Positions 168-52,899 of a DNA stretch of 64,000 nt are shown here, in pieces. The DNA comes from a virus (Duplodnaviria > Caudoviricetes), in IMG/VR virus record IMGVR_UViG_3300031088_000008, positions 160,001-224,000 of that record. One strand, written 5' to 3'. The notes below the pieces were generated by a model. It was not told the origin of the DNA. It worked only from the letters and a program-made list of their open reading frames with translations, and ran no database searches. Made by a program: the position numbers and the translations under genes. Position 1 is the first letter of the stretch; every line of letters begins with the position of its first letter.

Positions 168-1064
168 TCAAGGGCTCTTTTTGCTTCTTGCTTGCTCAAT
201 CAGATCTTTTTGATCCAGCGTCAGCTTTACGCTCTCAAAGGTTACCTCGACCATCATATCGCCCCTCTTGTCGGGGTTGATGGGCATTCCCTTTCCACCA
301 GCACGGAGACTTTGACCGGGGAGGATGCCTGCGGGCACCTTCATCTTGATCCGCTTTCCGTCGATGGTGGGCACTTCCTTCTCGGTTCCCAGCAGGGCAT
401 CAAAATAGTCGATTGAGATGCTGGTCAGAAGATTGTTGCCCATTCGGATAAAGGAATGATGGGGAACGATGGTGACCTTGACGTACAGGTCGCCGGGAGC
501 CACGTGCTTCATCTGGTCATCGCCCTTGCCCTGAAAGCGAAGCTTGATGCCATCTTGGATGCCGGGCGGAATCTTAAACTGCATCTTCTGCTGGTTCTTG
601 CCCGGCAGATTGTATGAGATGTCAGCGTCCTTGCCTGCAAAGGCCTCTTCCAGCGTGATGCTATATGATAGCACGATGTCGCGGTTCTTGGCGTCCTCGG
701 CAAAGGGGCTCGATCCACGCGACCTCTTCAAGTCGCGCAAGATCTCCTCGATGTCAATGTCCGGCCCACGCTGTCCACCGCGGAAGTGTGGGTTGTTGGC
801 CCACGAGTAAGCACCGCCGCTGCCACCGGTTGGACTGGGACCCGGACCAGGGCGACCCGATCGCATCATCATATCATGCTGGGCGCGCTTCTGCGGATCC
901 TTCAGCGTCTCATAGGCCTCACTGACCTCCTTGAACCGGGCTTCCGCTCCTGGGCTCTTGTTGGTGTCGGGGTGGTATTCTTTTGCCAGCTTTCGATAGG
1001 CACTCTTCAGTGCCGTGTCGTCTGCTGTCTTTTCAACACCTAGGATCGCGTAGAAGTCTTTCAT
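168..1064 (-). CDS. dnaJ: DnaJ-class co-chaperone (type II/CbpA-like, no Zn finger)
   Basis: J-domain DFYAILGV...YHPD, G/P-rich linker, C-terminal domain with GDLYV. Confidence 0.92.
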   Translation of the reverse strand: MKDFYAILGVEKTADDTALKSAYRKLAKEYHPDTNKSPGAEARFKEVSEAYETLKDPQKRAQHDMMMRSGRPGPGPSPTGGSGGAYSWANNPHFRGGQRGPDIDIEEILRDLKRSRGSSPFAEDAKNRDIVLSYSITLEEAFAGKDADISYNLPGKNQQKMQFKIPPGIQDGIKLRFQGKGDDQMKHVAPGDLYVKVTIVPHHSFIRMGNNLLTSISIDYFDALLGTEKEVPTIDGKRIKMKVPAGILPGQSLRAGGKGMPINPDKRGDMMVEVTFESVKLTLDQKDLIEQARSKKSP

Positions 1065-1072
1065 AAGCCCAC

Positions 1073-1100
1073 TCTATAAAGCATTTTGGGCGTCTGTCAA
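1073..1100 (-). promoter_or_regulatory. sigma70-like promoter for dnaJ, near-leaderless
   Basis: TTGACA-N16-TATAGA ending 8 nt before ATG 1064. Confidence 0.55.
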
Positions 1101-9762: not shown

Positions 9763-9839
9763 GCCCCGGTAGCTCAGCCGGATAGAGTAGCGGTTTCCTA
9801 AACCGACGGTCAGGGGTTCGAATCCCTTCCGGGGCACCA
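9763..9839 (+). tRNA. tRNA-Arg (anticodon CCU)
   Basis: acceptor GCCCCGG/CCGGGGC, loop TTCCTAA, GTTCGAA, encoded CCA. Confidence 0.93.
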
Positions 9840-9879
9840 ACGCTTGAGGAGAATGTCATGTTATAGATCGATCTAGGAC

Positions 9880-10686: not shown

Positions 10687-10715
10687 AAGTTATTGCAAAA
10701 CGCACTGGCTCTGCG

Positions 10716-10723
10716 TATAAATA
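10716..10723 (+). promoter_or_regulatory. T4-like late promoter
   Basis: TATAAATA 9 nt upstream of tRNA-Pro. Confidence 0.65.
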
Positions 10724-10732
10724 GAGCTGCAA

Positions 10733-10809
10733 CGGGGATTAGCGCAGCCTGGTAGCGCACCTGCTTTGGGAGCAGGGGGTCGTAGGTTCGAATCCTACAT
10801 TCCCGACCA
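10733..10809 (+). tRNA. tRNA-Pro (anticodon UGG)
   Basis: CGGGGAT acceptor, CCTGC-TTTGGGA-GCAGG, GTTCGAA, encoded CCA. Confidence 0.95.
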
Positions 10810-11174: not shown

Positions 11175-11201
11175 TTGACTTCTTTCCAAGCTCTGCTAGG
11201 A
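11175..11201 (+). promoter_or_regulatory. sigma70-like promoter, near-leaderless
   Basis: TTGACT-N15-CTAGGA then 7 nt to ATG 11209; same layout at 34793 and 37186. Confidence 0.55.
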
Positions 11202-11208
11202 CCCTGGC

Positions 11209-11520
11209 ATGGAGTACAAAGAGATAGATGGAGACCACGTCGTCTATTTGACGAAAGAGGAAACCGACGAGCTCTTTGATCCTTTTGATCCCACGGATGA
11301 GAATCTTCCCTCATACCTTCACCACGCAAGGCACCGCTTTATCACGCAGGAAGCCTACGATTGGTTGGAAACAAGTGTGGGTGAGCCCAAGATTCACTGG
11401 CAATCATTCAGCATGGGCAAAGACAAGCGCGGGTTCCAATTCGAGACCCGCGACAAAGCAATGCTGTTCAAGTTGAGATTTCATCAAGGAGAAGACAATG
11501 GGACTGTGGACGTTACTTGA
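11209..11520 (+). CDS. FKLxW-family small protein
   Basis: FETRDKAMLFKLRF. Confidence 0.8.
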   Translation: MEYKEIDGDHVVYLTKEETDELFDPFDPTDENLPSYLHHARHRFITQEAYDWLETSVGEPKIHWQSFSMGKDKRGFQFETRDKAMLFKLRFHQGEDNGTVDVT

Positions 11521-37501: not shown

Positions 37502-37785
37502 CGCACGTCTGCATCAAGGTCAATGACGAGATTTGGGATGGCTACGGTCTCCGCCTCGTCATGCACGACTGGCTGGTGCAGAATGTAGGTCAACAGGCCA
37601 GCGACATGACGGATTATACATGGAGCCGGAAAGCTGCCTTTTATCTGAGGGCCAGCGAGAGTTCCATTGATCCCATGTATCTGGCAACCGGTGATCGCCA
37701 GAATGGTCCAGCAAAATTCCTTCACTTCAAGTTCAAAGACCCCGCGAAGGCTATGATGTTCAAACTTGCATGGGGTGGTCGATGA
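37498..37785 (+). CDS. FKLxW-family small protein
   Basis: ends FKDPAKAMMFKLAWGGR. Confidence 0.8.
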   Translation: MTHVCIKVNDEIWDGYGLRLVMHDWLVQNVGQQASDMTDYTWSRKAAFYLRASESSIDPMYLATGDRQNGPAKFLHFKFKDPAKAMMFKLAWGGR

Positions 37786-38624: not shown

Positions 38625-38854
38625 GTGTCAACGTCGTCCTGCCTTTTAGTACCTGTGCTAGTTCTTCAAGCAATGGGTCGGTGAAAGTCCATCTCAACCC
38701 AGATATTTTGGATTGGCTCGCTGACAATGCGCCCCCAATCAGCCAGAAGGTAAACTGGATGTTGGGTCGCGATTACAGTCGATGGCAGGTAATGTTCAAC
38801 CTCCCCGATAAACACACCGCTGTCTTGTTCAAATTGACTTTTGGAGGCCGTTGA
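38621..38854 (+). CDS. FKLxW-family small protein
   Basis: ends DKHTAVLFKLTFGGR. Confidence 0.8.
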   Translation: MSVNVVLPFSTCASSSSNGSVKVHLNPDILDWLADNAPPISQKVNWMLGRDYSRWQVMFNLPDKHTAVLFKLTFGGR

Positions 38855-38869
38855 CCCCATAATGGGTTA

Positions 38870-39307
38870 ATGCGTATCCTGGAACACTTCGACGTTAAAT
38901 TCTCTGGTCCGTTGAAAGCGACAACTCGTAGCCGCTTCACGCTCCAGAATGACGACGGTACAATCTTTGATGTCATGATCCCCGGTGAGGAAAAACTCCT
39001 CGCGGCATTTCGGTGGATGGGCGAGAATGATTGCCTTCGTCATCTGAGATCCGTCGAGCCTGAATACCATGATAATCTCAAGGATATCATGAAGATTGAG
39101 GAATACAACACCCAGGTTCGAGAACACGCTCATCTGGTTGGAAGTCTTCAAACAGGAATCAACTATAACAATTACTCGCCCCAACATTACTCCAGTAATG
39201 GATATCCAATACCGCAGCTTCAACCTGTTCCCTCTGCGGTCTATGAGTGTACGTGGACCTTCTACAGCAAGGAACACGCAGTGATGTTCAAGTTGGCGTG
39301 CGGCTGA
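38870..39307 (+). CDS. FKLxW-family protein
   Basis: ends FYSKEHAVMFKLACG. Confidence 0.8.
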   Translation: MRILEHFDVKFSGPLKATTRSRFTLQNDDGTIFDVMIPGEEKLLAAFRWMGENDCLRHLRSVEPEYHDNLKDIMKIEEYNTQVREHAHLVGSLQTGINYNNYSPQHYSSNGYPIPQLQPVPSAVYECTWTFYSKEHAVMFKLACG

Positions 39308-41821: not shown

Positions 41822-42097
41822 AGCTTCTTTGGGGCGTCCTGAAGCATTCCAACATAAAAGAAACAACTGGGCAGTGCGGCGCTCTCCGAACTGAAATATC
41901 CGCCCCACATGCTCCATACCCGCGTCGGGACCAAATTCTCCATAGGTAACATAGGGGCGATACCAATTTACCAGCCCCCAATCCCCGCCATGGGCATCCA
42001 GCCACTCCTGTACTTTTTCGGACAGGCAACGTGTTTTGGCGCGCTTGGCTCCAAAGACACCGTTGTTGGCAAAGTGGACTGCTACTTCGTAATTCAC
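41804..42097 (-). CDS. FKLxW-family small protein
   Basis: FGERRTAQLFLLCW; GTGA overlap. Confidence 0.7.
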   Translation of the reverse strand: MNYEVAVHFANNGVFGAKRAKTRCLSEKVQEWLDAHGGDWGLVNWYRPYVTYGEFGPDAGMEHVGRIFQFGERRTAQLFLLCWNASGRPKEASQIPI

Positions 42098-42330
42098 GGG
42101 TTCGCCAAAGAGTCCAGGCCATAAAAGCTCAACTTGAACATGGTCGCCCATGAAGCCTCCCGAAAACAATAGACCCTGAGGTCGCCAACTTCCTGAAAAT
42201 AATCCATGTAATCAACGGCGTTCATGTGAAGCCAGGCATCCGCCCTTGCCTCGAGCGACATGTCATACTCTGGAAGACCAACCTCGTGGGGATAGTCGGC
42301 TTGGATCATGCGAATATAGGCATTGGGCAT
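42094..42330 (-). CDS. FKLxW-family small protein
   Basis: FREASWATMFKLSF. Confidence 0.8.
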   Translation of the reverse strand: MPNAYIRMIQADYPHEVGLPEYDMSLEARADAWLHMNAVDYMDYFQEVGDLRVYCFREASWATMFKLSFYGLDSLANP

Positions 42331-42614
42331 TAGATGCTCCCACACCAGCGAAGCTTGAACAGCATGGCCGCATTGGCATCCGAAAAGCCAATTATCCGAC
42401 CACGTGCTGGATCACCTTTGGGCAAATTGTTGTTCCACTGTCGCCAGTAGCCCTGCAGGTTTTCCTCGCACCAGTCCCACACTTCATCGCGGATTTCATA
42501 TCCATCGGGAAACTTTGTGGCGCTGTGGTTGGTCCTCAGGTACTCTTTCCATTCAATGTACCGACACACCCGGTCATTGCTGTATGGTACGCTGATTGTG
42601 ACCTCAAATTCCAT
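42330..42614 (-). CDS. FKLxW-family small protein
   Basis: FSDANAAMLFKLRW. Confidence 0.8.
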   Translation of the reverse strand: MEFEVTISVPYSNDRVCRYIEWKEYLRTNHSATKFPDGYEIRDEVWDWCEENLQGYWRQWNNNLPKGDPARGRIIGFSDANAAMLFKLRWCGSI

Positions 42615-42632
42615 GCCACGTCCTAGCAGTCT

Positions 42633-42917
42633 TTAGCCCCAAGTCAACTTGAACAAGAGTGCCTTGTTGGGATCCTTAAAGTAGAAGTTGGTATCGGTAA
42701 CCAACAATGGAATGTCGTTTCTCCACATTCCAATCTCCCTCATGGTGTTCTTGGGGCCAACGTGTTCTATGAGCCAGTTCAAGACGTCTTCCCTGAGATG
42801 CAGGGATTTGATACGAAAGCCGTTTTCATCCACGATGGACCACACGCATTGGTTGGCAATGTTGGCGCAAAACCATCCGTTCTCGTCTTCGTCATCAAAG
42901 ACGCCAGGATTATTCAC
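42633..42917 (-). CDS. FKLxW-family small protein
   Basis: ends FKDPNKALLFKLTWG. Confidence 0.8.
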   Translation of the reverse strand: MNNPGVFDDEDENGWFCANIANQCVWSIVDENGFRIKSLHLREDVLNWLIEHVGPKNTMREIGMWRNDIPLLVTDTNFYFKDPNKALLFKLTWG

Positions 42918-43185
42918 TGGCCCACCTCATCTTAAACAGCTGGGCGTCCCGCATCTCGGCAAAGAACCAAATGATGTGCTCGTCAATCGTCCTAAGACCC
43001 ATCTTGCTACCAGAGAGAACATCCTCTTTGGTCAGGATGGCGCCCGTTCGGACCAGCATTAGGTCGTAGTCGCCCTCGATGGTTGCAAGCCAGGCATAGA
43101 TCTCGTCAAGCCATGTCCCACGATGTTCCTGGCTATCTGGATTAGGAACAGGCATCATCACGCAATGGCCGGTAAAAACTGTCAT
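42910..43185 (-). CDS. FKLxW-family small protein
   Basis: FAEMRDAQLFKMRW. Confidence 0.8.
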   Translation of the reverse strand: MTVFTGHCVMMPVPNPDSQEHRGTWLDEIYAWLATIEGDYDLMLVRTGAILTKEDVLSGSKMGLRTIDEHIIWFFAEMRDAQLFKMRWASE

Positions 43186-43472
43186 AGAAACTTCAACTTG
43201 AAAAGAGCCGCGCGGCCTCGATCACTAATGGACAAGTGCCAGTGATCATAGACATTACACCAGAGTTGATATGTACTCGATCCAATAACCAACAGGGCAT
43301 CATCACTTAAAAAGTACCAGGGAGCCAGGCCGATACTCTTAGGCTTCATAATTTGGGCACTGCTCACACATAGGCGGTCAGTTGGCGGATTGAAATGGTC
43401 GTGACTGTACCAGAGCCACCCATCTTTGTTTATGGTGTCAATGCGATGTGGTAGCATGAAGGTTGTGCTCAT
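43182..43472 (-). CDS. FKLxW-family small protein
   Basis: ends SDRGRAALFKLKFL. Confidence 0.75.
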   Translation of the reverse strand: MSTTFMLPHRIDTINKDGWLWYSHDHFNPPTDRLCVSSAQIMKPKSIGLAPWYFLSDDALLVIGSSTYQLWCNVYDHWHLSISDRGRAALFKLKFL

Positions 43473-43475
43473 AGC

Positions 43476-43739
43476 TCAGGCATTCTGTATGTGGTGATAC
43501 CATCGAAGCTTGAAAATCATACCATCGCTGTTCTTGTAGAAGAGGATGTGGGTCTCAAACACCTGTGCCTTTTGGTGCTTTCCCTCGGAAGCCTTTTCGT
43601 TGTGCTTCCACTCCAATCCATACTCCGTGATCCCGCTATCGTCGAGCCAATCCTGAACTTCATAGGGGAGACGAGGTGGTGCGAGTTCCTCGTTGCGGTT
43701 TCCCCACACGTGGTAATCTTTGATAATGAACTGAATCAT
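43476..43739 (-). CDS. FKLxW-family small protein
   Basis: FYKNSDGMIFKLRW. Confidence 0.8.
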   Translation of the reverse strand: MIQFIIKDYHVWGNRNEELAPPRLPYEVQDWLDDSGITEYGLEWKHNEKASEGKHQKAQVFETHILFYKNSDGMIFKLRWYHHIQNA

Positions 43740-43960
43740 CGATACCACGCCAGCTTGAACAACATGGCGTCCTTTCGATCTTTGAACAAGATGTCCTGCT
43801 GAAGGTGGTCAGGATCTGCGCTCTTGTGCTGATTGTCACCAAACTTCATCGTAACGCGCAGCTCATGCCCAGCCGCATGTAGCCAAGCCAAAAGAGCCTG
43901 AAACTCCAAGCGGTGAAGCCGGATGGTTACCTTGTTGGGAAAGTCTTTATTTCGCACCAT
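43736..43960 (-). CDS. FKLxW-family small protein
   Basis: ends FKDRKDAMLFKLAWYR. Confidence 0.8.
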   Translation of the reverse strand: MVRNKDFPNKVTIRLHRLEFQALLAWLHAAGHELRVTMKFGDNQHKSADPDHLQQDILFKDRKDAMLFKLAWYR

Positions 43961-44255
43961 GGTCCCACCTCAACTTGAACAACATTAGGTCTCGACGAAA
44001 ACGAAAGTAGATGGGACGCATCCATCGTGGACCTGTGATGTCTATGAGACCAGTACCATCGGGACTTTCAACCCACCATCGACCACGAGGCAATTTGTCC
44101 AGCCACGCCCTAACATCTTCCCTCAGAGGATAGGCATCATAGTCGTCATATTGCTCGTCTTCAATTCGATCAAAGAATTCACTGGACCACTCGGCCACGG
44201 CACGCCATGCTCGCCCCTGGGCAATAAAGGATTTCCAGGAGTGGTGCGTTTCCAT
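43947..44255 (-). CDS. FKLxW-family small protein
   Basis: FRFRRDLMLFKLRW; start chosen at METHH. Confidence 0.75.
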   Translation of the reverse strand: METHHSWKSFIAQGRAWRAVAEWSSEFFDRIEDEQYDDYDAYPLREDVRAWLDKLPRGRWWVESPDGTGLIDITGPRWMRPIYFRFRRDLMLFKLRWDHGAK

Positions 44256-44275
44256 ACCTGTACCGTAAAGCCAGG

Positions 44276-44494
44276 TTAGGCAAAAGTCAACTTGAACAAC
44301 ACGGCTGCCTGTGGATCGTCGAAGTGAAAGAGAATGGTATCCAGGCCAAAGGAAACGTCCCATCCATTATAGACCCTATTGGGATCCTTGCTCGCAAGGC
44401 AGAGCTCGGGAAAGTGGGCTATCAACCATTCAGCAGATTCCCTGTAGGTGCTCTGCCAATTTCCTCGATCAGAGATTTCCACCGTTACAGCCAT
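44276..44494 (-). CDS. FKLxW-family small protein
   Basis: ends FDDPQAAVLFKLTFA. Confidence 0.8.
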   Translation of the reverse strand: MAVTVEISDRGNWQSTYRESAEWLIAHFPELCLASKDPNRVYNGWDVSFGLDTILFHFDDPQAAVLFKLTFA

Positions 44495-44721
44495 GAGAGT
44501 TTGAACAGCATGGCTGCCTCTCGGTCCTCGGTCTTAAAGCAGAAGTGACGCAGGAATGGAAATGGTGCGATACCCGAGGTGTCCACATTGGAACTCCAAA
44601 TGACATCAAGCGCCCGGTCGTCAAACCATTCGGCTATCTCAATCCAGTGATCATCGCTCTGATCCATTGGCATGCTGACGATTACGGGATGAGTTTGCAT
44701 GACCAGTGACATCAAGGGCAT
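44485..44721 (-). CDS. FKLxW-family small protein
   Basis: ends EDREAAMLFKLSWL. Confidence 0.8.
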   Translation of the reverse strand: MPLMSLVMQTHPVIVSMPMDQSDDHWIEIAEWFDDRALDVIWSSNVDTSGIAPFPFLRHFCFKTEDREAAMLFKLSWL

Positions 44722-44954
44722 TATGCCCACCTCAATTTGAACATCATGGCATTTTGGGGCTCACGGAACTCAAACATGATCCCCACAAATTCCACATTGT
44801 TGTGGACGCCTGGCTTGCTCACCACGGTGCTAATAGGTCGTTCCTTGACATGTTCCACGGCCCATTCTACCAGATAGGTCTGAACAGCTTTTACCTTGTT
44901 GATCTCTTCATTGATCTCGCGAAGGCGCGCCAGAGATAGTTCAACTTCCCTCAT
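44721..44954 (-). CDS. FKLxW-family small protein
   Basis: ends FREPQNAMMFKLRWA. Confidence 0.8.
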   Translation of the reverse strand: MREVELSLARLREINEEINKVKAVQTYLVEWAVEHVKERPISTVVSKPGVHNNVEFVGIMFEFREPQNAMMFKLRWA

Positions 44955-45265
44955 GCCCACCTCAACTTGAATAGGACTGCTCTCGAGGGATCACGGAACA
45001 CAAAGAAGGCGTTATCGGTCCGTGTGGCGATCACCCAGCCCCAGTCCTCATGACCCACGCATTGTTCTCCCGAAGAGACGCAACCCGGTCCATCGTTCTC
45101 GCAGTGGTCAAGATGAAAGACCAATTCCACAATGTTGGTCCACCAACGGCTATCACCCAGGCCAACGTTTGCCCGGAGCCAGTCTAGGACTTCCGGCTTT
45201 AGGGTGATACCCATTTCCCAGTTGACCAGTCGCTCATAGGGCAGCTCAACAGTCGCGCTAGTCAT
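44951..45265 (-). CDS. FKLxW-family small protein
   Basis: ends FRDPSRAVLFKLRWA. Confidence 0.8.
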   Translation of the reverse strand: MTSATVELPYERLVNWEMGITLKPEVLDWLRANVGLGDSRWWTNIVELVFHLDHCENDGPGCVSSGEQCVGHEDWGWVIATRTDNAFFVFRDPSRAVLFKLRWA

Positions 45266-45546
45266 CGACCACCAAATGTAAGTTTGAATAGAACAATGGT
45301 ATCAAGGTCCACTTCGTCACCAAAGTAAAAATGTAGATCCTTGCTTCCAAACTGCGCCAGCCATCCAGGAGTGAAGTCCCAGTTCTTGCCTCTGATATCC
45401 CCACCGTTGCCGTTGCTGGGTCCCAGACGCTCTCCCGCCCACATGACTGCATCGGCAATCTTCTCACCACTGGGATCGTGGAGTGTCACGACAGTAACCT
45501 TTGGGAGGTCTATATCGCTGGGAACCCAAAAGACTTGCTGCTTCAT
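45262..45546 (-). CDS. FKLxW-family small protein
   Basis: ends LDTIVLFKLTFGGR. Confidence 0.8.
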   Translation of the reverse strand: MKQQVFWVPSDIDLPKVTVVTLHDPSGEKIADAVMWAGERLGPSNGNGGDIRGKNWDFTPGWLAQFGSKDLHFYFGDEVDLDTIVLFKLTFGGR

Positions 45547-45842
45547 TGTCCACCCCAGCGAAGCTTGAACAACATGGCGTGTTTGGCATCCGCATCATTG
45601 AAGCAGATCATCCGGTGATTCCAGATGCCACCACTTCCCTCTCGACGCCTCTGGTCGTAATTGTAGCTCTTCACGCACCAATGCCCGGGAGGCAATTCCT
45701 TCAACGTGGATCCGCTGGGAATGTACTGGAGGTTCATCTCCTTGGCCCAGGTCTTTATCGCATCAAGGACCGCCACCCAGGGGTTTGAGGTGTCTTCAGA
45801 CAGGTTGTAGATCTGTTTGTCAGTGAGAGGAAAGGTGATCAT
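45543..45842 (-). CDS. FKLxW-family small protein
   Basis: ends DAKHAMLFKLRWGGQ. Confidence 0.8.
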   Translation of the reverse strand: MITFPLTDKQIYNLSEDTSNPWVAVLDAIKTWAKEMNLQYIPSGSTLKELPPGHWCVKSYNYDQRRREGSGGIWNHRMICFNDADAKHAMLFKLRWGGQ

Positions 45843-45862
45843 TAATCCTCCCTATAGAGTAT

Positions 45863-46123
45863 CTAGCCCCAAGTCAATTTGAACAGCATGGCAAAATCAG
45901 GATCGTTCTGAAAGTAAAAGACCCACTCATCACTGGTGCGACCAGAAGTCCAACCCCAGCCAACTCTGTCCTCACTATACAGTCGATCGTGCCCGCTCAG
46001 TCCCTTCTTTTCCACACACCAGGAAAGTGCATCATTCAAACTGGCTGTTGGAACGCGGACAAACGTGCAGGAATTGTACCACTCCATGCTCTTGCTCAGC
46101 GTGTCTCCCCAAAGGTCGCTCAC
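45863..46123 (-). CDS. FKLxW-family small protein
   Basis: ends NDPDFAMLFKLTWG. Confidence 0.8.
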   Translation of the reverse strand: MSDLWGDTLSKSMEWYNSCTFVRVPTASLNDALSWCVEKKGLSGHDRLYSEDRVGWGWTSGRTSDEWVFYFQNDPDFAMLFKLTWG

Positions 46124-46350
46124 TTTCCACCCCACGTTAGTTTGAACAACATGGCATCCCTGGCAAACTCATCAGGAAATACCACCGACCAGTCCTGCTC
46201 ACTGAGGCTGGCATTGGATCGAAAAGGAATTCCTCGACTATCCATAAAGTCAAGCACTTCGGGGCGAACTTTCCAATACCCACCCCGTCGATTTCTTGCC
46301 TCCAACCACTCGCAGGCTTTTGAAAGATCACAGTGAACACGAATACCCAT
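46120..46350 (-). CDS. FKLxW-family small protein
   Basis: ends FARDAMLFKLTWGGK. Confidence 0.8.
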   Translation of the reverse strand: MGIRVHCDLSKACEWLEARNRRGGYWKVRPEVLDFMDSRGIPFRSNASLSEQDWSVVFPDEFARDAMLFKLTWGGK

Positions 46351-46718
46351 CAGGGAATACTCAGCTTGAACAAGAGCGCATCGCTCTTCAATTCAAAGGC
46401 AATCTCACGGATGCTGCGGAACTTGTCGCGTATCTCATCAGTTACCATATTCAGTTTGCGGGCCAACCGCAACTCTTCCTGGTCATCACGGGTAACGGTT
46501 ATCTGTTCAATGGTGGTGAACCGACGATTGTTCACGTAGTACCAGCGACCCTTGCAGTTTGCCTCCAACCACTCAAATACATGGTCGGCAATGGGGACGC
46601 CATAGGTTGCCGGTCGACCATCAGGTCGCCAGCGATGGACCGGAGAAGTCTCCGAGTTGAAACCCTTACGGGAAAAGTACCGGACGCCATAGAGGGGCAC
46701 GAATGTCCACTCAATCAT
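46350..46718 (-). CDS. FKLxW-family small protein
   Basis: ends FELKSDALLFKLSIP. Confidence 0.8.
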   Translation of the reverse strand: MIEWTFVPLYGVRYFSRKGFNSETSPVHRWRPDGRPATYGVPIADHVFEWLEANCKGRWYYVNNRRFTTIEQITVTRDDQEELRLARKLNMVTDEIRDKFRSIREIAFELKSDALLFKLSIP

Positions 46719-46948
46719 ATCCAGGTCAACTTGAACAAAAGTGCCACATCCTTGTCCTCTATGGTCACGATACAGTTCTGTGTGTCAAAGTCAATGTCGT
46801 GGTCCCACTTGTTGGGAGCCAGTCGGGCATCTAGCCAGTCGGCTATCTCGGGGTTGAATATCTGATAACTTCCCCAGGGGCTTTCCGTACAGTGGTGTTC
46901 CCTGTAGGCAACCTTATCACTGAGTATGATGCTGTACTCTACGCCCAT
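46715..46948 (-). CDS. FKLxW-family small protein
   Basis: ends EDKDVALLFKLTWI. Confidence 0.8.
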   Translation of the reverse strand: MGVEYSIILSDKVAYREHHCTESPWGSYQIFNPEIADWLDARLAPNKWDHDIDFDTQNCIVTIEDKDVALLFKLTWI

Positions 46949-47193
46949 GTGAGTTTGAACAACATGGCAGCTTTGGGATCCTGGAAGGATATGGCATTGT
47001 TGGTGGGTTGCCCATCAACAAAGGCGTAGACCCATATCCACTCACACTCCCCGGACCAACCACCAGCTTGATTTCCTCGTCCCACAAAGGTGGTCAACCA
47101 CTGAAAAACATCCTGGCGAATCCACCATCCACTACTGTAGGGGTGAGTGTCCCTATATAGGATGCTGCTGGGAATGGGGACCACACTATCCAT
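46939..47193 (-). CDS. FKLxW-family small protein
   Basis: ends FQDPKAAMLFKLTWA. Confidence 0.8.
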   Translation of the reverse strand: MDSVVPIPSSILYRDTHPYSSGWWIRQDVFQWLTTFVGRGNQAGGWSGECEWIWVYAFVDGQPTNNAISFQDPKAAMLFKLTWA

Positions 47194-47549
47194 TAGCCCC
47201 AAGCCAGCTTGAACATCATCACGTCTTTACGACGCCGGAAAAGGATCCCACACTCCTCACCAAACTCACTGGGATGCTCGGTGGTCCAGTCCATGTAGTT
47301 CAAGCTATCGTGGAGCCAGTTACGGATATCTGGACGAAGGTAATCGTAGTTGGGATGAAAATCGTAGTTGTGGTTGTGGTCTTCACTCTCGAGGGTAAAG
47401 AGCTCATTGTCATAGCCAAAAGCCGAGTTGCTCTGCCGACCGCGAACCAGCGAGGGAGCATCCACCTTGGGCTTTCCAATGGCGGTCACGCGATAGCGAT
47501 AGTTCCAGGGCCACCAGGGGATACCAATGTCATGAATCTGTATTTTCAT
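47193..47549 (-). CDS. FKLxW-family small protein
   Basis: ends FRRRKDVMMFKLAWG. Confidence 0.8.
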   Translation of the reverse strand: MKIQIHDIGIPWWPWNYRYRVTAIGKPKVDAPSLVRGRQSNSAFGYDNELFTLESEDHNHNYDFHPNYDYLRPDIRNWLHDSLNYMDWTTEHPSEFGEECGILFRRRKDVMMFKLAWG

Positions 47550-47790
47550 CAGCCCTGCTTTCTACGAGAAGAAAAATCAGTTGGGCGGTCCGGCGGTCCT
47601 GAAATGCCAGGTCGTGACGGTAGGAGGGGTTCATAGCCATCCACCAATCACGTCGCCACTCAAGACCCAGTTCCTCAAACCACAGGTCGATCTCCCAATC
47701 GAGATCGCCATTCATATTGGCCCACGTACTTGGCATGATGCTGCTGGGAATGCTTACCAGCCAGGAAGTTTGAGGACGCCGTCTAGCCAT
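47530..47790 (-). CDS. FKLxW-family small protein (degenerate motif)
   Basis: FQDRRTAQLIFLL. Confidence 0.7.
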   Translation of the reverse strand: MARRRPQTSWLVSIPSSIMPSTWANMNGDLDWEIDLWFEELGLEWRRDWWMAMNPSYRHDLAFQDRRTAQLIFLLVESRADENTDS

Positions 47791-47811
47791 CTTCCTCTCT
47801 ATAGAGCAGAA

Positions 47812-48093
47812 CTATAACCAAGTCAACTTGAACAAGAGGGCATCAGAGGCTTCCCGGAAACCAAAGGAAACTCCAATGACTTCTCGGTGAGGCTCCCAAA
47901 CACTGGAGTTTCTATGAAGCAACTCAATGGTAGCGTGGCTACGGGTAAAAGAAGTAAGCCACTCGCATAGCTCATCAGTTGGAACTATCTGGTATCCCCG
48001 GGGCTTTCCCCACTCCAATCCCCGGGGAAGAGAAGTGTGTCGGCGATTGTAATTTCCAAGTGCTCCTGGGAGCATGATCGAGAGTTCATACAT
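47812..48093 (-). CDS. FKLxW-family small protein
   Basis: ends FREASDALLFKLTWL. Confidence 0.8.
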   Translation of the reverse strand: MYELSIMLPGALGNYNRRHTSLPRGLEWGKPRGYQIVPTDELCEWLTSFTRSHATIELLHRNSSVWEPHREVIGVSFGFREASDALLFKLTWL

Positions 48094-48114
48094 AAGCCCA
48101 CTATAGGAGTGGAC

Positions 48115-48459
48115 TTATCCCCACGTCAATTTAAAGAGCACTGCATCGCTCGGGTTAGGAATGTAAACTCCACACTTCGCAGCATAGGTTGCTAGACCCC
48201 AATCTTCATCAGATTCAGGAACCTTGTATATTGAACATAGTTCATAGGCTATGTTGTTAGCAATGAGCCAATTCTTTTCTCGACAAGTTTCGGTGCTATC
48301 CCACCAGAATAGAAATCCAAACTCTATAGAGCCTGCAGGATCCCCTACAAACATGGGTCTGAACTCAAAACTGTCACCGGTGATGTCAAGTAGCTCACGA
48401 TGACTATGCTTGATCGGAAAAATCTGATTGGGGTTCCACCCCGGATGAGGCCGCTTCAA
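48115..48459 (-). CDS. FKLxW-family small protein
   Basis: ends PNPSDAVLFKLTWG. Confidence 0.8.
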   Translation of the reverse strand: MKRPHPGWNPNQIFPIKHSHRELLDITGDSFEFRPMFVGDPAGSIEFGFLFWWDSTETCREKNWLIANNIAYELCSIYKVPESDEDWGLATYAAKCGVYIPNPSDAVLFKLTWG

Positions 48460-49081
48460 AACAGCGGCCTCATGGACCAGAGGAAGTCGATGGCATTGGA
48501 GATTGTCGAGACCGCGGTAATCTCATCAGAGTGACCTGCGAAACTCAAGTCCATACGGACCACTTTGTTTTTGGAATAAACTGATGCAGTCGATGCACCA
48601 ATCGCTTGTCGTATGGAGGAAGCCTTTGCGCTGGCAATCTGTGGATCTTCATAGAAGCGGTACAGACACACGCGAATAACACTGTTACTTGGGTCACCCT
48701 GAAAAGCGAGCGTGGGCTGTCCTAGCTGAGAAAGGATGGTCTCCCTACCAAGATCACCAGTGGTCTTGCGACACGCTCGAATCCGGTCGTAACCTTTGGC
48801 TTTATCTTGATCTGCCATTTTGTAGCTCTGACCGTTCAGCGTGATAAAGTCTCCCAAGGTCCCTGAGGAGATTCGCTGAAGCAGCGCAATGCTGGCATAT
48901 TCAGTGCATGAATTGATTAGGATTGATTTTGACATGGTGCGGTTCCCTATAAGAGAGGTTAGAGTTGAGTTAGAGTTTCCAACGCCGCACCATTGCGATC
49001 ATCTACCTCCTATAGAACACCGTTAACTCAGTATGTCAATTACGTTTTCTAATTGACTAGCCCCACGTCAATTTAAAGAGC
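48119..49081. repeat. 21-bp perfect direct repeat flanking a two-gene segment
   Basis: CCCCACGTCAATTTAAAGAGC at 48119-48139 and 49061-49081. Confidence 0.85.
48456..48935 (-). CDS. hypothetical protein (non-family, inside array)
   Basis: 159 aa; own promoter TTGACA-N18-CTATAG at about 49010-49039. Confidence 0.7.
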   Translation of the reverse strand: MSKSILINSCTEYASIALLQRISSGTLGDFITLNGQSYKMADQDKAKGYDRIRACRKTTGDLGRETILSQLGQPTLAFQGDPSNSVIRVCLYRFYEDPQIASAKASSIRQAIGASTASVYSKNKVVRMDLSFAGHSDEITAVSTISNAIDFLWSMRPLF

Positions 49082-49323
49082 GTGGCAATCGCAGGGTCCT
49101 TGAAGGCGAAGACTACCTGACCAGGAACGACATCATTGCCATCGTCGTAGTCCTGAATGATATCCCACTCATCGACCTCAACGCGCTGCTGGTCTATCCA
49201 CTCCCAAAAGCCATCGGTTGCCCTATAGCCCTCATTGTAGTCGCTGGCCAGATTCCACCACACGACACCGGGTCCCGATGGATCGTAGTGGTCCTCTTTT
49301 ACTATGATGTGAACGTTGTGCAT
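49057..49323 (-). CDS. FKLxW-family small protein
   Basis: ends FKDPAIATLFKLTWG. Confidence 0.8.
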   Translation of the reverse strand: MHNVHIIVKEDHYDPSGPGVVWWNLASDYNEGYRATDGFWEWIDQQRVEVDEWDIIQDYDDGNDVVPGQVVFAFKDPAIATLFKLTWG

Positions 49324-49562
49324 CAGTGGTTCCAAATCAGCTTGAACAACATGGCAGTTCTCCGATCTTCAAAGGTGAACTCATAGGATTCAACACCAAG
49401 GACGAGGTCCTTGGAGAACCCACCAGTCCACTGACCATAGGGATTCTGCTCGCTCAGGACCCGCCCAACGGTCGCCTCAAGCCAGTCCCAAATACCATTC
49501 CTCTCCCCATGGTATGACTCAAAGGGAATCAGTACACGGTATCTAAACTTTTTACGCCGCAT
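49323..49562 (-). CDS. FKLxW-family small protein
   Basis: ends FEDRRTAMLFKLIWNH. Confidence 0.8.
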   Translation of the reverse strand: MRRKKFRYRVLIPFESYHGERNGIWDWLEATVGRVLSEQNPYGQWTGGFSKDLVLGVESYEFTFEDRRTAMLFKLIWNH

Positions 49563-49845
49563 CAATGACTCCATACCAAGTGAGCTTGAACAACATAGCG
49601 GCACGCTGATCGGGAATATCCACGTGACTGTCGCCGCTGATTAGGTCAATGTCCATTCCATAGAAGACATCTCGATCCTCAAGCCACTGATGCATGGTAT
49701 CCTGCAGAACATAGATGGTGCAGAGGTCATCCCACAATCGAACATAGGGGCGTCCACGATGGATACCACAACCCATGTCCAGTTCATAATAGTGGGGGTC
49801 GGACCTGATCTCAAAGAAGTCCGCGGACACAGCTATCTCACTCAC
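49552..49845 (-). CDS. FKLxW-family small protein
   Basis: PDQRAAMLFKLTWYG. Confidence 0.8.
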   Translation of the reverse strand: MSEIAVSADFFEIRSDPHYYELDMGCGIHRGRPYVRLWDDLCTIYVLQDTMHQWLEDRDVFYGMDIDLISGDSHVDIPDQRAAMLFKLTWYGVIDAA

Positions 49846-50093
49846 TGGAAATCATGCCACGTGAGCTTGAACAACATAGCGATGCCCTTGTCTTTGAAGC
49901 GAAAGCGAACGCTATTCAATCCCTCTACGGGGCGTTGACTTACCCAAGCATCCCAACCCAGGCCCTCACCAATCACTGGGAAACCCTCCTCCACTATAGG
50001 GACACCATTGGCTGCAAACCACCCCTTTAGAGCAGGTGCGAAGAGGCCCTTCTCAAGAGGAACGCTGGCCGCGAAGGTGTCACTATAGGTCAT
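49842..50093 (-). CDS. FKLxW-family small protein
   Basis: FKDKGIAMLFKLTWH. Confidence 0.8.
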   Translation of the reverse strand: MTYSDTFAASVPLEKGLFAPALKGWFAANGVPIVEEGFPVIGEGLGWDAWVSQRPVEGLNSVRFRFKDKGIAMLFKLTWHDFQ

Positions 50094-50116
50094 CTTTTCT
50101 CTCTATAGAGGAAGAG

Positions 50117-50335
50117 TTAGCCCCAAGTCAACTTGTACAGCATGGCCTTCTGGGGGTCGCGAATACTGACTATCAAGCGGTCATCCAGTTCCTCAGGACG
50201 AACGTTTACGCGCCAAAACCACTCACCAGTAGTGTCCAGCTTGGATAGCGATTGAGCGCCCACATGCTCCAGTAGCCAGTTCTGCACCTCGATGTGAAGT
50301 TCCATCCCTATAGGGAAGTTGTGCCACTCTGTCAT
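50117..50335 (-). CDS. FKLxW-family small protein
   Basis: ends RDPQKAMLYKLTWG. Confidence 0.8.
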   Translation of the reverse strand: MTEWHNFPIGMELHIEVQNWLLEHVGAQSLSKLDTTGEWFWRVNVRPEELDDRLIVSIRDPQKAMLYKLTWG

Positions 50336-50344
50336 GTTTCCGCT

Positions 50345-50566
50345 CTATAGGGGAAAGGTACACCACGTCAAGTGAAACAGCTGAGCAATCCTCCGCTTCT
50401 CAAAGACAAGGGAATCCACCCCTATCCTGTTGAAATCAAAGTCAAACCACCAGTGAACACCCTCGTGAAAACGGTTTCTGATAAACCATTCCTCTATGTC
50501 GGGAAGCAACTCACTACTATAGGTGCCGATTACCATGTAGGCCTGAACAGGGATGCGGACTTCCAT
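50345..50566 (-). CDS. FKLxW-family small protein
   Basis: FEKRRIAQLFHLTW. Confidence 0.8.
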   Translation of the reverse strand: MEVRIPVQAYMVIGTYSSELLPDIEEWFIRNRFHEGVHWWFDFDFNRIGVDSLVFEKRRIAQLFHLTWCTFPL

Positions 50567-50588
50567 GTTTCTCTCTATAGAGGAAGAG

Positions 50589-50846
50589 TTAACCCCAAGT
50601 CAACTTGAACAAAAGAGCAGTGGATTGCTCCTGGAATTCGACCTCTAGGCCCTCCGGATAGAAGCTATAGTGGGCATCAAAGAACGTACTATAGGAGAAA
50701 GAACCACCATGCTCCTGTAACCACCGAGTCATACGTGGCCCCGGACCAAATCCCGTCACATAGCTTCCACTAGAAGGGTTGTGAACGGTCTGATAACACA
50801 GATCCTTACTGTCCTCACGATACTCTATAAAGACACTGGTAGTCAT
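50589..50846 (-). CDS. FKLxW-family small protein (first gene of the minus array)
   Basis: ends FQEQSTALLFKLTWG; upstream TTGAAC-N16-CTATAG. Confidence 0.8.
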   Translation of the reverse strand: MTTSVFIEYREDSKDLCYQTVHNPSSGSYVTGFGPGPRMTRWLQEHGGSFSYSTFFDAHYSFYPEGLEVEFQEQSTALLFKLTWG

Positions 50847-50849
50847 CCG

Positions 50850-52140
50850 CCCTCTATAGAACACCCCTATAGAGAGTTCAACTATTTTGTCCCTAGTGGA
50901 GAGTTGAACTTTCCTCTCTATAGCGTAGACTCTGGTTTCCCACTATAGAGGACACTATAGTGGAACTCTGGTGATAGCTATGGCAAGGCACACTCTGGTG
51001 TACTCTGGGCTAACTCTGGTGACAGATATGCGTGATACGTGAAAGGCACAGTAAAAGGCTATTATGGCATAATAAAGCTGAATTACCGTGCTTTTATGAG
51101 CATTTATTGAACACTATAGGGTCTAAAAAGCCACGCAAATCTGCGACTTTTGAGCAAGTTTTGGCATAGTTAAGTACCATTAAATCAATAATAATTCTTT
51201 CGCCGCACATATAGATTTGACGTGATTTGACACCTTTTTCCACGCTCCTGGGAGCGTCCTCTAGGTGGACTCCTGACGTCCAGGGTCCTCACTAGAGTGG
51301 TCCTATAGTGGATCCATAGTGTCTGAACTCTGTCTATAGTACCTTCTACTATGGCTTCTACTATAGTCTTGGCTATATGAGTCACAGCTATAGTCTACAC
51401 TAGAGTCTATGCTATAGGGAACTTCATGGATTCTCTATAGAGCATTACTATAGGTGTTTCCACTACTGTGATTGGTAATGTGGGGGTGGCTATCTGATGG
51501 TGGATCAAAGATATGAAAAAGCGTACAGTGCCACTTTGAAGTCGCGCTCCGCGCCTAGCATTTTGCGCGGGCATGGTTGGAGGTTTTTCTAAGGTAGTGA
51601 GCATTCTATGAGCAGCTTTTCACTACTATAGAGGCACTATTGGGCACGTTCTCGCGGGCACTTTTGTTCCACTATACGGGAACTCTACTCAACTATAGAC
51701 CAACTCTGCGGGCGATTTGCGGGCGATCAGCCCAAATTTTTGCGCTACTCTGCTCAACTCTAGACCAGCTTTTGGGGCCACTCTCGCGGGCAAATTCCTT
51801 CCACTGCTCGCCCAGCCGTAGGCTTGCTCGCCCAAAATCACGGGCTGTTCGGCGGATTTCACGGGTAGTTTTGGGAAAATCACGGGCTCCTGGGATCAGG
51901 ACCCTCCACAATGGAAGCACCATGTCAACACTATAGCGGCACTATGGGAGAACTATTACTCCACTATAGAGGCACTATAGGTTGCTTGAAAAAACCTTAC
52001 AGGGAATGTCAAAAATTTGATACGCGTGATAAAGGCGATCTGAGGATTATGAAGTTTCTGGGATTCTATACCCTCGGCCCTTCACGTTTTTCAGAATCAT
52101 ATTCTTTCATTAACCCTTTTCATTTACTCAGTTTGGTTTA
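50850..52140. other. large non-coding region rich in CTATAG palindromes and short repeats (candidate origin, pac site or genome end)
   Basis: 18 exact CTATAG in 50854-51980; ACTCTGG x5, GCGGGC and TCACGGG repeats; no credible ORF. Confidence 0.7.
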
Positions 52141-52899
52141 TCAAAGTTGGCTAACGGAAACTTGATCAACAAACATTGCTGGACTGTTCGTCTTCTGAGA
52201 GATCAACCTAACGAACATTTGATTGCCGGTAACAAAATTGAAATCATAAGGTTTCCACTCTGTGGTGAGATCTATTGTGGTGTTCACGGCATAGGCCAAG
52301 TTAGTATAGACCAGCAGGTGTAACTGTGTGGGTTGGCTTTCCGCGCGTGCCCACACCCTAACCCTATAGTTGGTACTGCCCGGCAATGCGTTGAAGTACC
52401 CAGTTGTTATGTCCGATGGGTTACCCGATGCTACCGGATCCAGCCTTAGCATCCTAGATCCCTGTAGAGCTAGGGGACTGGCCACTATAGTGGCCGCACC
52501 ATAGTTTACCACCCACACACCATTACCCTCGAATGCATCAGAGAAGACAGCGGTTCCGCTCTGAACAAGTACAGTCTTCACCGTGGAGTTCGTGCTCACT
52601 GTCTCGGTCCCAATGGTTGCTGTTACTCTGCATTGTAGGTTAGTGGCACTGCTAGGCCAATAGGTGTCTTTGTTTGGACTAAACTTGGCCTTGACTCCAT
52701 TGACCAGCCACTCATAGGTTACCGTATCGGGTACTCTATTGGTGGCCCAGTTGACTTTGAACTGCTCACCTATCCTCGTGCCAGTGATAGTTGGTATGGC
52801 AGTAAAGGCAAGTGGTGGGACAACAATCAGCTTGCTTGGTGCCTCGCGGCTGATCAGCTTTCCAATAGGTCGGAACGCTCCTGTGAACTTCATTGCCAT
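52141..52899 (-). CDS. virion accessory protein, Ig-like plus carbohydrate-binding-like domain
   Basis: beta-rich; YEWLVNG, YRVRVWARA, LTTEWKPY, MFVDQVSV. Confidence 0.7.
   Translation of the reverse strand: MAMKFTGAFRPIGKLISREAPSKLIVVPPLAFTAIPTITGTRIGEQFKVNWATNRVPDTVTYEWLVNGVKAKFSPNKDTYWPSSATNLQCRVTATIGTETVSTNSTVKTVLVQSGTAVFSDAFEGNGVWVVNYGAATIVASPLALQGSRMLRLDPVASGNPSDITTGYFNALPGSTNYRVRVWARAESQPTQLHLLVYTNLAYAVNTTIDLTTEWKPYDFNFVTGNQMFVRLISQKTNSPAMFVDQVSVSQL

Follow-up and report, generated by a model that had tools for sequence, protein, structure and literature searches.

Leaderless mRNAs are exemplified in phages by the lambda cI message made from PRM, and T4-type phages carry multiple early promoters within arrays of small early genes. 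A strong AUG preference has been demonstrated experimentally for the leaderless mRNAs of Caulobacter crescentus, and each extra leader nucleotide approximately halves their translation (available part of PMC8459731). For Agrobacterium tumefaciens the excerpted text of PMC3384568 gives 32 leaderless mRNAs among 388 mapped starts, and it cites CTTGAC-N17-CTATAT as the rhizobial housekeeping promoter consensus. Among giant phages, no leaderless transcript was found by dRNA-seq of phiKZ according to the accessible portion of PMC8244752, and 5' UTRs of 26-491 nt are given for AR9 in that of PMC5312081. By its clamp loader, the phage considered here has a Sinorhizobium phage, Phosso (PV764938.1; 56% identity), and an Agrobacterium phage (50%) as its nearest cultured relatives.

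The window analysed is a 64,000-nucleotide stretch, bases 160001-224000 of the 416,714-bp, 90%-complete record of this 417-kb phage (G000), and it was compared with three related giant phages (G001, G002 and G003). It contains an array of small paralogous genes, with two non-family ORFs interspersed (Table 1). The model of the array family has 95 six-frame matches in the whole G000 genome, and the family gave no matches to Pfam, PHROG, NCBIfam or PDB sequences. Exactly nine array junctions have a gap of at least 9 nt, and their upstream genes stop at 50589, 50345, 50117, 49057, 48115, 47812, 45863, 44276 and 42633.

Table 1. Window positions of the array, the promoter-like modules and the palindrome cluster
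Feature	Coordinates	Strand	Layout or content
Array of 29 small paralogous genes (72-122 aa)	42094..50846	minus	C-terminal A.LFKL[T/R/A]W(G)
Two non-family ORFs interspersed in the array	48456-48935 and 47530-47790
Dense CNCTATAGNG cluster	50854..51980	.	CTATAG core, in AT-richer stretch
Head-of-array promoter-like module	50844..50881	minus	TTGAAC (50876-50881)-N16-CTATAG (50854-50859)-N7-ATG (50846)
Junction module 50566	50564..50603	minus	Leu-Thr TTGACT (50598-50603)-N17-CTATAG (50575)-N8-ATG (50566); gap 22 nt
Junction module 50335	50333..50371	minus	Leu-Thr TTGACG (50366-50371)-N15-CTATAG (50345)-N9-ATG (50335)
Junction module 50093	50091..50131	minus	Leu-Thr TTGACT (50126-50131)-N17-CTATAG (50103)-N9-ATG (50093)
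Ninth gapped junction	49000..49071	minus	Coded Leu-Thr TTGACG (49066-49071), beyond promoter distance
Junction module 48093	48091..48129	minus	Leu-Thr TTGACG (48124-48129)-N17-CTATAG (48101; -10 read as TATAGT)-N7-ATG (48093)
Junction module 47790	47788..47826	minus	Leu-Thr TTGACT (47821-47826)-N16-CTATAG (47799)-N8-ATG (47790)
Junction module 45842	45840..45877	minus	Leu-Thr TTGACT (45872-45877)-N14-CTATAG (45852)-GGAGGATTA-ATG (45842)
Junction module 44255, without CTATAG	44253..44290	minus	Leu-Thr TTGACT (44285-44290)-N17-TACGGT (44262)-N6-ATG (44255)
Junction module 42614, without CTATAG	42612..42647	minus	Leu-Thr TTGACT (42642-42647)-N15-CTAGGA (42621)-N6-ATG (42614)
Plus-strand array junction	38834..38872	plus	Leu-Thr TTGACT-N18-CATAAT-N6-ATG (38870)
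Ordinary class member ahead of DnaJ-like gene	1062..1100	minus	TTGACA-N17-(A)TAGAG-N7-ATG
Ordinary intergenic class member	11175..11211	plus	TTGACT-N15-CTAGGA-N7-ATG

The original prediction held that the Leu-Thr codons of the protein motif encode the -35 box of the next gene's promoter, and the codon usage on which it drew is as it claimed: all nine gapped junctions follow a Leu-Thr coded TTG-ACN, and the six overlapping junctions behind a Leu-Thr member use CTC (three times), CTA, CTT and a single TTG (9/9 vs 1/6, Fisher p=0.002; 9/9 vs 6/19, p=0.0008, when every overlapping member is included). Of the Leu codons in long ORFs, 17.2% are TTG. The Fisher test that it proposed for homologous arrays gave TTG-ACN at 17/17 junctions of this geometry in the four genomes and TTG at 11/52 overlapping Leu-Thr junctions (p=3.6e-9), where the 17 were hand-picked from the junction listing and one non-TTG junction (G000 198004; CTG, 32 nt) was dropped given its Shine-Dalgarno sequence and overlapping GTG start; the three relatives alone gave 8/8 vs 9/40 (p=6.4e-5). 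The residue is coupled as well as the codon, since Thr is at the motif position in 17/17 of this class vs 56/124, in a protein family that tolerates R, A, S, K and others there. TTG is necessary at gapped junctions but not exclusive to them: TTG-ACN is also present at overlapping junctions, namely at 7/17 Leu-Thr junctions in G003 and at window positions 35534 and 46741.

The -10-like boxes proposed at eight of the junctions (CTATAG at six, CTAGGA and TACGGT at one each) all lie where they had been placed, 14-17 nt after TTGACN and 6-9 nt before the ATG. In the 50335 module CTA-TAG is the last codon and stop of the upstream gene, so both boxes lie inside that gene; in the head-of-array module the -35 is outside coding sequence. 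The ninth junction has a separate intergenic TTGACA (49034-49039)-N18-CTATAG (49010)-N7-ATG (49002), whose ATG starts only a 10-codon mini-ORF ahead of a 159-aa gene. Among the ten array modules (head plus nine junctions) TA falls exactly at -12/-11 in seven (head, 50335, 50093, 49002, 48093, 45842 and 44255); the other three are off by one base, and junctions 50566, 50093 and 47790 are 1-2 nt outside the strict clade geometry. T at -7 is missing from most of the -10 boxes. An E. coli-type sigma-70 scan recovered one of the nine junction promoters (48093) and gave 7 matches in the region vs 10.1 +/- 2.9 in shuffles, which is no enrichment.

The same layout occurs far beyond the array. The pattern TTGACN-N16-18-TAN4-N5-6-ATG was found 47, 49, 30 and 49 times in G000, G001, G002 and G003, vs 4, 4, 1 and 4 times for the reversed control. 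For ORFs of at least 60 codons, the spacing between TTGACN and the first in-frame ATG has a clear peak at 28-30 nt (14, 18 and 12 sites over a background of 1-2), and five control pentamers have flat profiles. The peak contains 44, 51, 31 and 46 ATG starts in G000, G003, G002 and G001, respectively, while GTG (3, 4, 4, 5) and TTG (4, 4, 7, 7) starts in the 28-30-nt window are at background in the same four genomes; behind a strong Shine-Dalgarno sequence 19.5% of candidate starts are GTG and 10% TTG. A pyrimidine directly precedes the ATG in 111/142 sites (78%), vs 494/1046 (47%) of Shine-Dalgarno-led starts. When the 39 extra-array sites are anchored on the ATG, 27 have T at -12 and 27 have A at -11; over the 137 extra-array sites of the four genomes a TG is frequent just before the TA (T in 69/137, G in 66/137), giving (TGn)TAnnnn as the -10, and the sixth -35 base is A in 83/137. 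An ATG with TTGAC at 27-31 nt is kept in 42/71 orthologues (G001 16/26, G002 11/18, G003 15/27) with diverged spacers. The examples first named outside the minus-strand array, a plus-strand junction at 38834 and ordinary promoters at 1064, 4639 and 11175, are present as described. At the plus-strand junction the three relatives retain TTGAC at 30 nt from the ATG, and at the DnaJ-like gene, where the TAG is the upstream ORF's stop codon, 3/3 close relatives have TTGAC at 29 nt although the spacer has diverged. Dual coding is not special to the array's Leu-Thr motif: at unrelated genes the -35 coincides with [LVIF]-Asp codons or holds a TGA stop, and a TAA or TAG stop supplies the TA of the -10. 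In other phages the layout is weak (Phosso, 23 vs 8 in the control) or absent (Atu_ph07, 16 vs 10; PA5oct, 5 vs 10).

We think it likely that the gapped junctions carry host sigma-70/RpoD-type promoters with the -35 in the Leu-Thr codons and with leaderless or near-leaderless mRNAs, one case of a clade-wide layout. As a promoter reading this is well supported computationally, by sequence geometry, codon statistics and conservation: the Leu-Thr TTGACN takes the -35 place of the genome-wide class, codon and residue choice are coupled in four genomes, and the class puts the ATG at about +1 of its predicted starts. We infer from this the initiation of transcription, the leaderless translation and the RNA polymerase used. 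Searches of the 90%-complete record for an RNA polymerase beta-like gene and for a sigma-70 region-2 gene were negative (both search controls responded). In the proposed mechanism the -35 would be the Leu-Thr codons in the C-terminal ..FKLTW motif of the upstream gene, the -10, with its TA at -12/-11 from the A of the ATG, would lie in the short gap or, once, in the upstream last codon and stop, and the downstream ATG would stand at, or 1-2 nt from, the predicted transcription start, so that an mRNA initiated at that point would have no leader or almost none. TTG and Thr would be fixed at such junctions because the DNA must read TTGAC. Promoter modules of ~36 nt would in this way be fitted tightly against the preceding gene or inside it, with ~40-50 uses per genome in the phage and its three close relatives.

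One element fits the clade pattern poorly. CTATAG, proposed as the -10 box, forms the centre of the palindrome CNCTATAGNG; 35/52 CTATAG copies in the genome lie within one 8-kb stretch, 17/19 copies of CNCTATAGNG lie in the cluster, and only ~20% of the clustered CTATAG copies are accompanied by a -35 with 5/6 or more matching bases (null 4%). CTATAG agrees poorly with the -10 preferences of the clade itself and is absent from the other ~40 promoter-like sites. Further CNCTATAGNG copies are present in the array's first 5 kb, eight of them within coding sequence. Each of the four genomes has a cluster at its array head, in the three relatives in the same relative place; the cluster regions share no nucleotide similarity, and no conserved ORF was found in the 1.28-kb AT-richer stretch (50861-52145). 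CTATAG is not simply a -10 box. These facts could mean that the gaps exist to hold CNCTATAGNG as an operator, iteron or origin-type site, the motif's TTGAC being incidental and initiating nothing. We consider this unlikely, because 44255, 42614, the plus-strand 38870 and several junctions of the relatives share the geometry without CTATAG, and because it leaves unexplained both the 17/17 TTG and, at unrelated genes, the peak in TTGAC-to-ATG distance. An operator and a -10 can share bases, so the palindrome and the promoter are compatible; at the array head the palindrome also takes up the -10 position, and with less confidence we infer that CNCTATAGNG is a putative binding site of a dimeric factor gating the array-head promoters.

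Alternatively, the gaps might be ordinary Shine-Dalgarno spacers on one long read-through transcript with no internal promoters. GGAGG or GAGG lies between box and ATG in three or four gaps (3-4 nt before the ATG at 45842, 47790 and 49002), and terminator-like sites in the array number 12 vs 8.5 in shuffles with none standing out, so read-through is likely in any case. This explanation is nevertheless decidedly unlikely, as 5/9 gaps have no Shine-Dalgarno-like sequence and it cannot explain the TTG/Thr coupling, the TA at -12/-11, the ATG-only peak or the -1 pyrimidine. Where such a sequence is present it would be absent from a leaderless mRNA, so translation of read-through transcripts could be the main mode. 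The modules might also be duplication scars or gene-conversion tracts, shared by descent and without a role in expression, and ~44 nt are indeed identical between the 50093 and 50566 modules, flanked by diverged coding sequence; this identity is also the sole support for the suggestion that gene ends are putative portable expression modules. However, outside the motif the nine upstream proteins have 19.9% mutual identity vs 19.1% to other paralogs (permutation p=0.25), and shared descent does not account for the gapped-junction class; the other modules vary in spacer and retain TTGAC, TA and spacing, and the geometry is found at non-family genes and kept in orthologues, all of which makes the scar explanation very improbable. 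A promoter for a phage single-subunit (T7/SP6-like) RNA polymerase, whose core would be CTATAG with a run of purines, is hardly credible: the idea came from a resemblance to ..CACTATAG-GGAGA, and forms CCACTATAGTGG, ACTCTATAGGGAGG and CTCTATAGAGAG are present, but the element is palindromic and confined to one locus, and a PF00940 search of the record gave no match (the control for this search was silent).

The promoter reading can be set beside the known systems. Like rhizobial and alphaproteobacterial RpoD promoters, the junctions have a TTGAC -35 and a (C)TAnnn -10 about 15-17 nt on, and CTATAG shares 5/6 bases with CTATAT; the consensus has C before TTGAC, whereas the array junctions have A or G (from a Lys codon), the clade's sites are mostly TGnTAnnnn, unlike the rhizobial -10, and the host is not known to be a rhizobium. 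An ATG at +1, rare among the A. tumefaciens starts cited above, is the predicted placement in the phage layout. As in leaderless systems such as Caulobacter, the -10 ends ~6 nt before the ATG, ATG is strongly preferred and there is no room for a Shine-Dalgarno sequence, but the phage case is predicted and would concern some 40-50 genes of a giant phage. T4-type arrays likewise have internal sigma-70-type promoters among small genes of unknown function with read-through likely; unlike them, the phage -35 is built from the upstream paralog's conserved motif and the transcripts are predicted to be leaderless. Phosso has the same protein family (54 six-frame matches) and TTGAC-type promoters against family gene ends, several with a TGA stop in the -35, but its TTGAC-to-ATG distances are mainly 43-52 nt (leaders with Shine-Dalgarno), the leaderless layout is kept in 0/5 orthologues, no junction has a Leu-Thr -35 and the CNCTATAGNG cluster is absent (1 site). 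If the predicted starts are true, gene ends that double as promoters would be a genome-wide, space-saving layout in these phages.

At nine junctions of the array, neighbouring genes lie 9 nt or more apart (these gapped junctions are named here by the downstream ATG), and the original prediction held that at these places the Leu-Thr codons of the upstream protein's C-terminal motif, spelled TTG-ACN, are also the -35 box of the next gene's promoter, which would give leaderless or short-leader mRNAs. Recounting bears out the codon choice: TTG-ACN precedes all nine gapped junctions, while TTG is found at only one of six overlapping Leu-Thr junctions (Fisher p = 0.002). The -10-like boxes, which had been placed 14-17 nt after the hexamer in eight of the nine with the ATG 6-9 nt further on, were recovered at the same positions and spacings. 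The -35 hexamer is TTGACN at all nine junctions and TTGAAC at the array head; at the ninth junction the predicted -35 in use is an intergenic TTGACA 18 nt ahead of CTATAG, not the coded TTGACN, and three junctions are off the strict geometry by 1-2 nt. Apart from the motif itself, the nine upstream proteins resemble each other no more than they resemble other members (permutation p = 0.25), so common descent does not account for the codon choice. An E. coli-type sigma-70 scan accepted one of the nine junctions and gave no enrichment in the region. Five of the nine gaps have no Shine-Dalgarno sequence and three or four have GGAGG or GAGG, so the downstream genes may be translated mainly from read-through transcripts. 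Sites of the same layout genome-wide show only GG at -6/-5. Two junctions share an approximately 44-nt module, CAAGTTGACTTGGGGYTAACTCTTCCTCTATAGAGAGAAA, with a single base of difference, even though the genes flanking the two modules are only 22-31% identical, and this near-identity suggests that the module is under selection or gene conversion.

Features of the array, of its predicted promoters and of the surrounding genome (window coordinates unless stated otherwise)
Feature	Location	Strand	Remarks
Array	42094-50846	minus	29 small paralogs, 18-32% identical to the first, ending A.LFKL[T/R/A]W(G)
Promoter-like module TTGACA-N18-CTATAG-N7-ATG	48999-49039	minus	opens only a 10-codon ORF (MIAMVRRWKL)
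159-aa gene outside the family	48456-48935	minus	follows the 10-codon ORF; no match to known families
Windows with the CAAGTTGACTTGGGGYTAACTCTTCCTCTATAGAGAGAAA module	50540-50650; 50067-50177	minus	two junctions
CNCTATAGNG palindrome cluster	50854-51980 (densest), spreading to 45852		head of main array
CNCTATAGNG clusters in relatives (loci L005, L006, L007)	L005 3168-4201; L006 1232-4000; L007 1783-3130		one per genome
W-G-G-x-stop endings (examples)	46120-46152, 45543-45575, 45262-45294, 37753-37785 (+)		
Sites with TGA stop in -35 or TAA/TAG as -10 (examples)	113611, 122894, 194827, 293209, 373158 of the whole record		
DnaJ-like protein	168-1064	minus	J domain + C-terminal domain
ClpP-like protease	8527-9174	minus	
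Three tRNAs	9676-10809	plus	Leu-TAG, Arg-CCT, Pro-TGG

Does the coupling hold in homologous arrays? Three related giant-phage genomes were found through the neighbouring endolysin (G001, 465 kb; G002, 277 kb; G003, 462 kb), and together with the whole record of the window (G000) they supply 17 family members that lie 9 nt or more from the next gene and whose Leu codon is followed by an ATG at 27-32 nt; one CTG case was left out of this class, as a Shine-Dalgarno sequence and an overlapping GTG make a likelier start there. All 17 junctions (nine in G000, four in G003 and two each in G002 and G001) have TTG-ACN, versus TTG at 11 of 52 overlapping Leu-Thr junctions, so the Fisher test of codon choice across homologous arrays that had been proposed as a check came out in favour of the coupling (p = 3.6e-9). 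The relatives alone give 8/8 versus 9/40 (p = 6.4e-5). The residue is coupled as well, with Thr at the motif in 17/17 class junctions versus 56/124. TTG is thus required at junctions with promoter geometry, yet it is not restricted to them, and it stands at 7 of the 17 overlapping Leu-Thr junctions of G003. Leu codon usage was taken from a crude gene caller that missed many small genes. A different ending, W-G-G-x-stop, was seen in 42/124 overlapping-junction family members versus 3/17 at promoter junctions in the four genomes; because its TGG-GGT-GGN codons put GGTGG or GGAGG directly ahead of the next gene's ATGA or GTGA start, the Gly-Gly tail of overlapping members may double as the next gene's Shine-Dalgarno sequence.

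The layout extends well beyond the array. For ORFs of at least 60 codons, the spacing between TTGACN and the first ATG in frame showed a sharp peak at 28-30 nt (14, 18 and 12 sites on a background of 1-2), and five control pentamers gave no peak in the same scan. The pattern TTGACN-N16-18-TAN4-N5-6-ATG occurs 47 times in G000 versus 4 for a reversed control, and 49 versus 4, 30 versus 1 and 49 versus 4 times in G001, G002 and G003, respectively. At ATG-anchored sites outside the array T at -12 and A at -11 are present in 27/39. Among 137 genome-wide sites TG often stands ahead of the TA and the rest of the -10 hexamer is weakly conserved (T at -7 in only 56/137); the -35 is close to the sigma-70 TTGACA, its sixth base being A in 83/137. 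The position is kept in relatives while the spacers have diverged: orthologues with an ATG and a TTGAC 27-31 nt before it number 16/26, 11/18 and 15/27 in the three genomes. In Sinorhizobium phage Phosso this count was 0/5, the TTGACN-TA-ATG layout being weak there and absent in phages Atu_ph07 and PA5oct.

With the -10 at -12 to -7 from the A of the ATG, transcription would start at or beside the start codon, and several properties of the sites fit leaderless mRNA. The 28-30 nt peak belongs to ATG starts only (44, 51, 31 and 46 in the four genomes), with GTG and TTG at background; among candidate starts that have a strong Shine-Dalgarno sequence, about 30% are GTG or TTG. An AUG start with GUG and UUG disfavoured, as expected of leaderless mRNA, is therefore seen in all four genomes, and in Caulobacter reporters AUG is strongly preferred and each added leader nucleotide costs about two-fold (PMC8459731). 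A pyrimidine precedes the ATG at 78% of the class sites versus 47% of Shine-Dalgarno-led starts. Going by the TA at -12/-11 and the pyrimidine at -1, the predicted transcript 5' end is the A of the start codon.

How the -35 falls on the preceding gene was read at 38 G000 sites, where the upstream ORF end was taken as the last qualifying stop, which leaves some cases ambiguous. The hexamer lies in Leu-Thr codons at 9 and in [LVIF]-Asp codons at 10, and at 6 it contains the upstream TGA stop (nnT-TGA-CA, gaps of 29-31 nt); it is intergenic at 9, and 4 sites have no nearby ORF end. Sites with TGA in the -35 number 7, 7 and 11 in the relatives, the 11 being in G003. At six G000 sites with a 9-nt gap, junction 50335 among them, an upstream TAA or TAG supplies the TA of the -10, and the entire predicted promoter of 50335 would thus lie inside the upstream gene. 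With such varied dual use of -35 and -10, the Leu-Thr finding appears as one face of a compaction rule, and the original interpretation was largely right but too narrow, while its reading of CTATAG needs correction.

CTATAG had been taken simply as the -10-like box. That part stands for the TA at -12/-11, which most junctions have, and a junction CTATAG can serve as a -10; promoter-like junctions at 44255, 42614 and 38870 lack it. CTATAG is also a separate, conserved cis element: 35 of its 52 G000 copies fall between 205 and 213 kb of the record (CTATAT, 5/59), and the flanks extend it to the palindrome CNCTATAGNG, of whose copies 17/19 in G000, 15/17 in G002, 12/21 in G003 and 6/13 in G001 are gathered in one cluster. 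In each of the three relatives a single cluster of this kind occupies the corresponding place, although blastn and tblastx found no similarity between the surrounding noncoding regions. Eight CTATAG copies lie within the coding sequence of the first array genes, and only about 20% of the clustered copies are accompanied at 15-18 nt by a -35 with 5/6 or more bases matching, versus a null of 4%. Spacings of 11-13 or 23-31 nt are common between neighbouring CNCTATAGNG sites. The densest stretch (50861-52145, 1.28 kb, just upstream of the array) has a GC content of 45% versus 53% and no conserved ORF; Rfam and tRNA scans found nothing at 50.8-52.1 kb, the only tRNAs being the three at 9.7-10.8 kb.

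Many short palindromic copies at one locus, kept in relatives, are what operators or iterons present, and our best guess is that CNCTATAGNG is a putative binding site for a dimeric factor controlling the array head; no DNA-binding domain was detected in the ORFs neighbouring the cluster. The element may instead be an origin or packaging site. Cumulative GC skew gives no sign of an origin at the cluster. GANTC sites in the noncoding region number 7 versus about 3.3 expected, too small an excess to build on. A promoter for a single-subunit (T7/SP6-like) RNA polymerase is very unlikely: such promoters are asymmetric, about 23 nt long and used genome-wide, and this palindromic element is limited to a single locus; PF00940 had no match in the record in a search whose control was also silent.

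Because neither an RNA polymerase beta-like gene nor a sigma-70 region-2 gene was found in the record (416,714 bp, about 90% complete, with the window at bases 160001-224000), the host polymerase is the likely reader of the predicted promoters. The rhizobial housekeeping consensus, cited as CTTGAC-N17-CTATAT in PMC3384568, fits the TTGAC and (C)TAnnn form both here and in Phosso. By clamp-loader similarity the nearest cultured relatives are Phosso (56% identity) and Agrobacterium phage Atu_ph07 (50%). Phosso has the protein family and packed promoters like the clade of the window but lacks the CNCTATAGNG cluster, as does Atu_ph07. Comparison of the DnaJ-like gene and the endolysin with bacterial genomes gave scattered matches, uninformative as to the host. 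Fourteen sequencing runs contain this stretch, all of DNA or of unrecorded kind and mostly from phyllosphere or plant metagenomes. The window also encodes T4-type replication and baseplate proteins, a DnaJ-like protein, a ClpP-like protein and an M15 endolysin. The palindromic hexamer GTATAC has no copy in all 416,714 bases of G000, and ACTAGT (8), CTTAAG (14) and GTTAAC (20) are scarce beside GATATC (135) and TGATCA (278), which looks like avoidance of host restriction sites.

Six-frame profile matches to the LFKLTW family number 95 in G000, 81 in G003, 54 in Phosso, 2 in PA5oct and none in Atu_ph07. The 29 array members gave weak single matches to Pfam and none to PHROG or NCBIfam; PDB sequences matched only at E > 0.5, an ESM Atlas search returned viral clusters without names (scores up to 0.87), and a homologue search found 16 proteins, none of them named. 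In the literature searched, neither the family nor leaderless promoters in phages of this group are described, and no protein motif is reported to act as a -35; the word "promoter" is absent from the text of the Atu_ph07 paper (PMC6102473). Internal sigma-70 promoters, leaderless mRNAs and overlapping codes are already known, and what we describe is a variation on them. No leaderless transcript was seen in phiKZ (PMC8244752), and AR9 has 5' UTRs of 26-491 nt (PMC5312081).

Put together, these observations allow a joint reading that we offer tentatively, as one that may well prove wrong: in this clade of giant phages a large share of the genes read by the host polymerase would have become leaderless and would take their promoters from preceding gene ends. 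The -35 would come from Leu-Thr codons, from [LVIF]-Asp codons or from a TGA stop, and the -10 from TAA or TAG stops; the Thr and the TTG codon of the conserved motif would be fixed by the needs of the promoter and not by what the protein does; and CNCTATAGNG would be the operator of a putative phage factor, through which a single dense control region switches all the head-of-array promoters together. If start-site mapping confirms the dual-coded promoters, they would offer a clear example from nature in which regulatory DNA limits the choice of both codon and amino acid in a conserved protein motif, many times over in one genome and again in its relatives. It would mean large-scale use of leaderless mRNA by a giant phage, unlike phiKZ and AR9, with long gene arrays split into short transcription units. 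For annotation, real starts would be predicted as the ATG at a fixed distance from TTGAC, and the clade would supply a promoter module only about 36 nt long for use in hosts of alphaproteobacterial type, with the CNCTATAGNG cluster marking a conserved control region.
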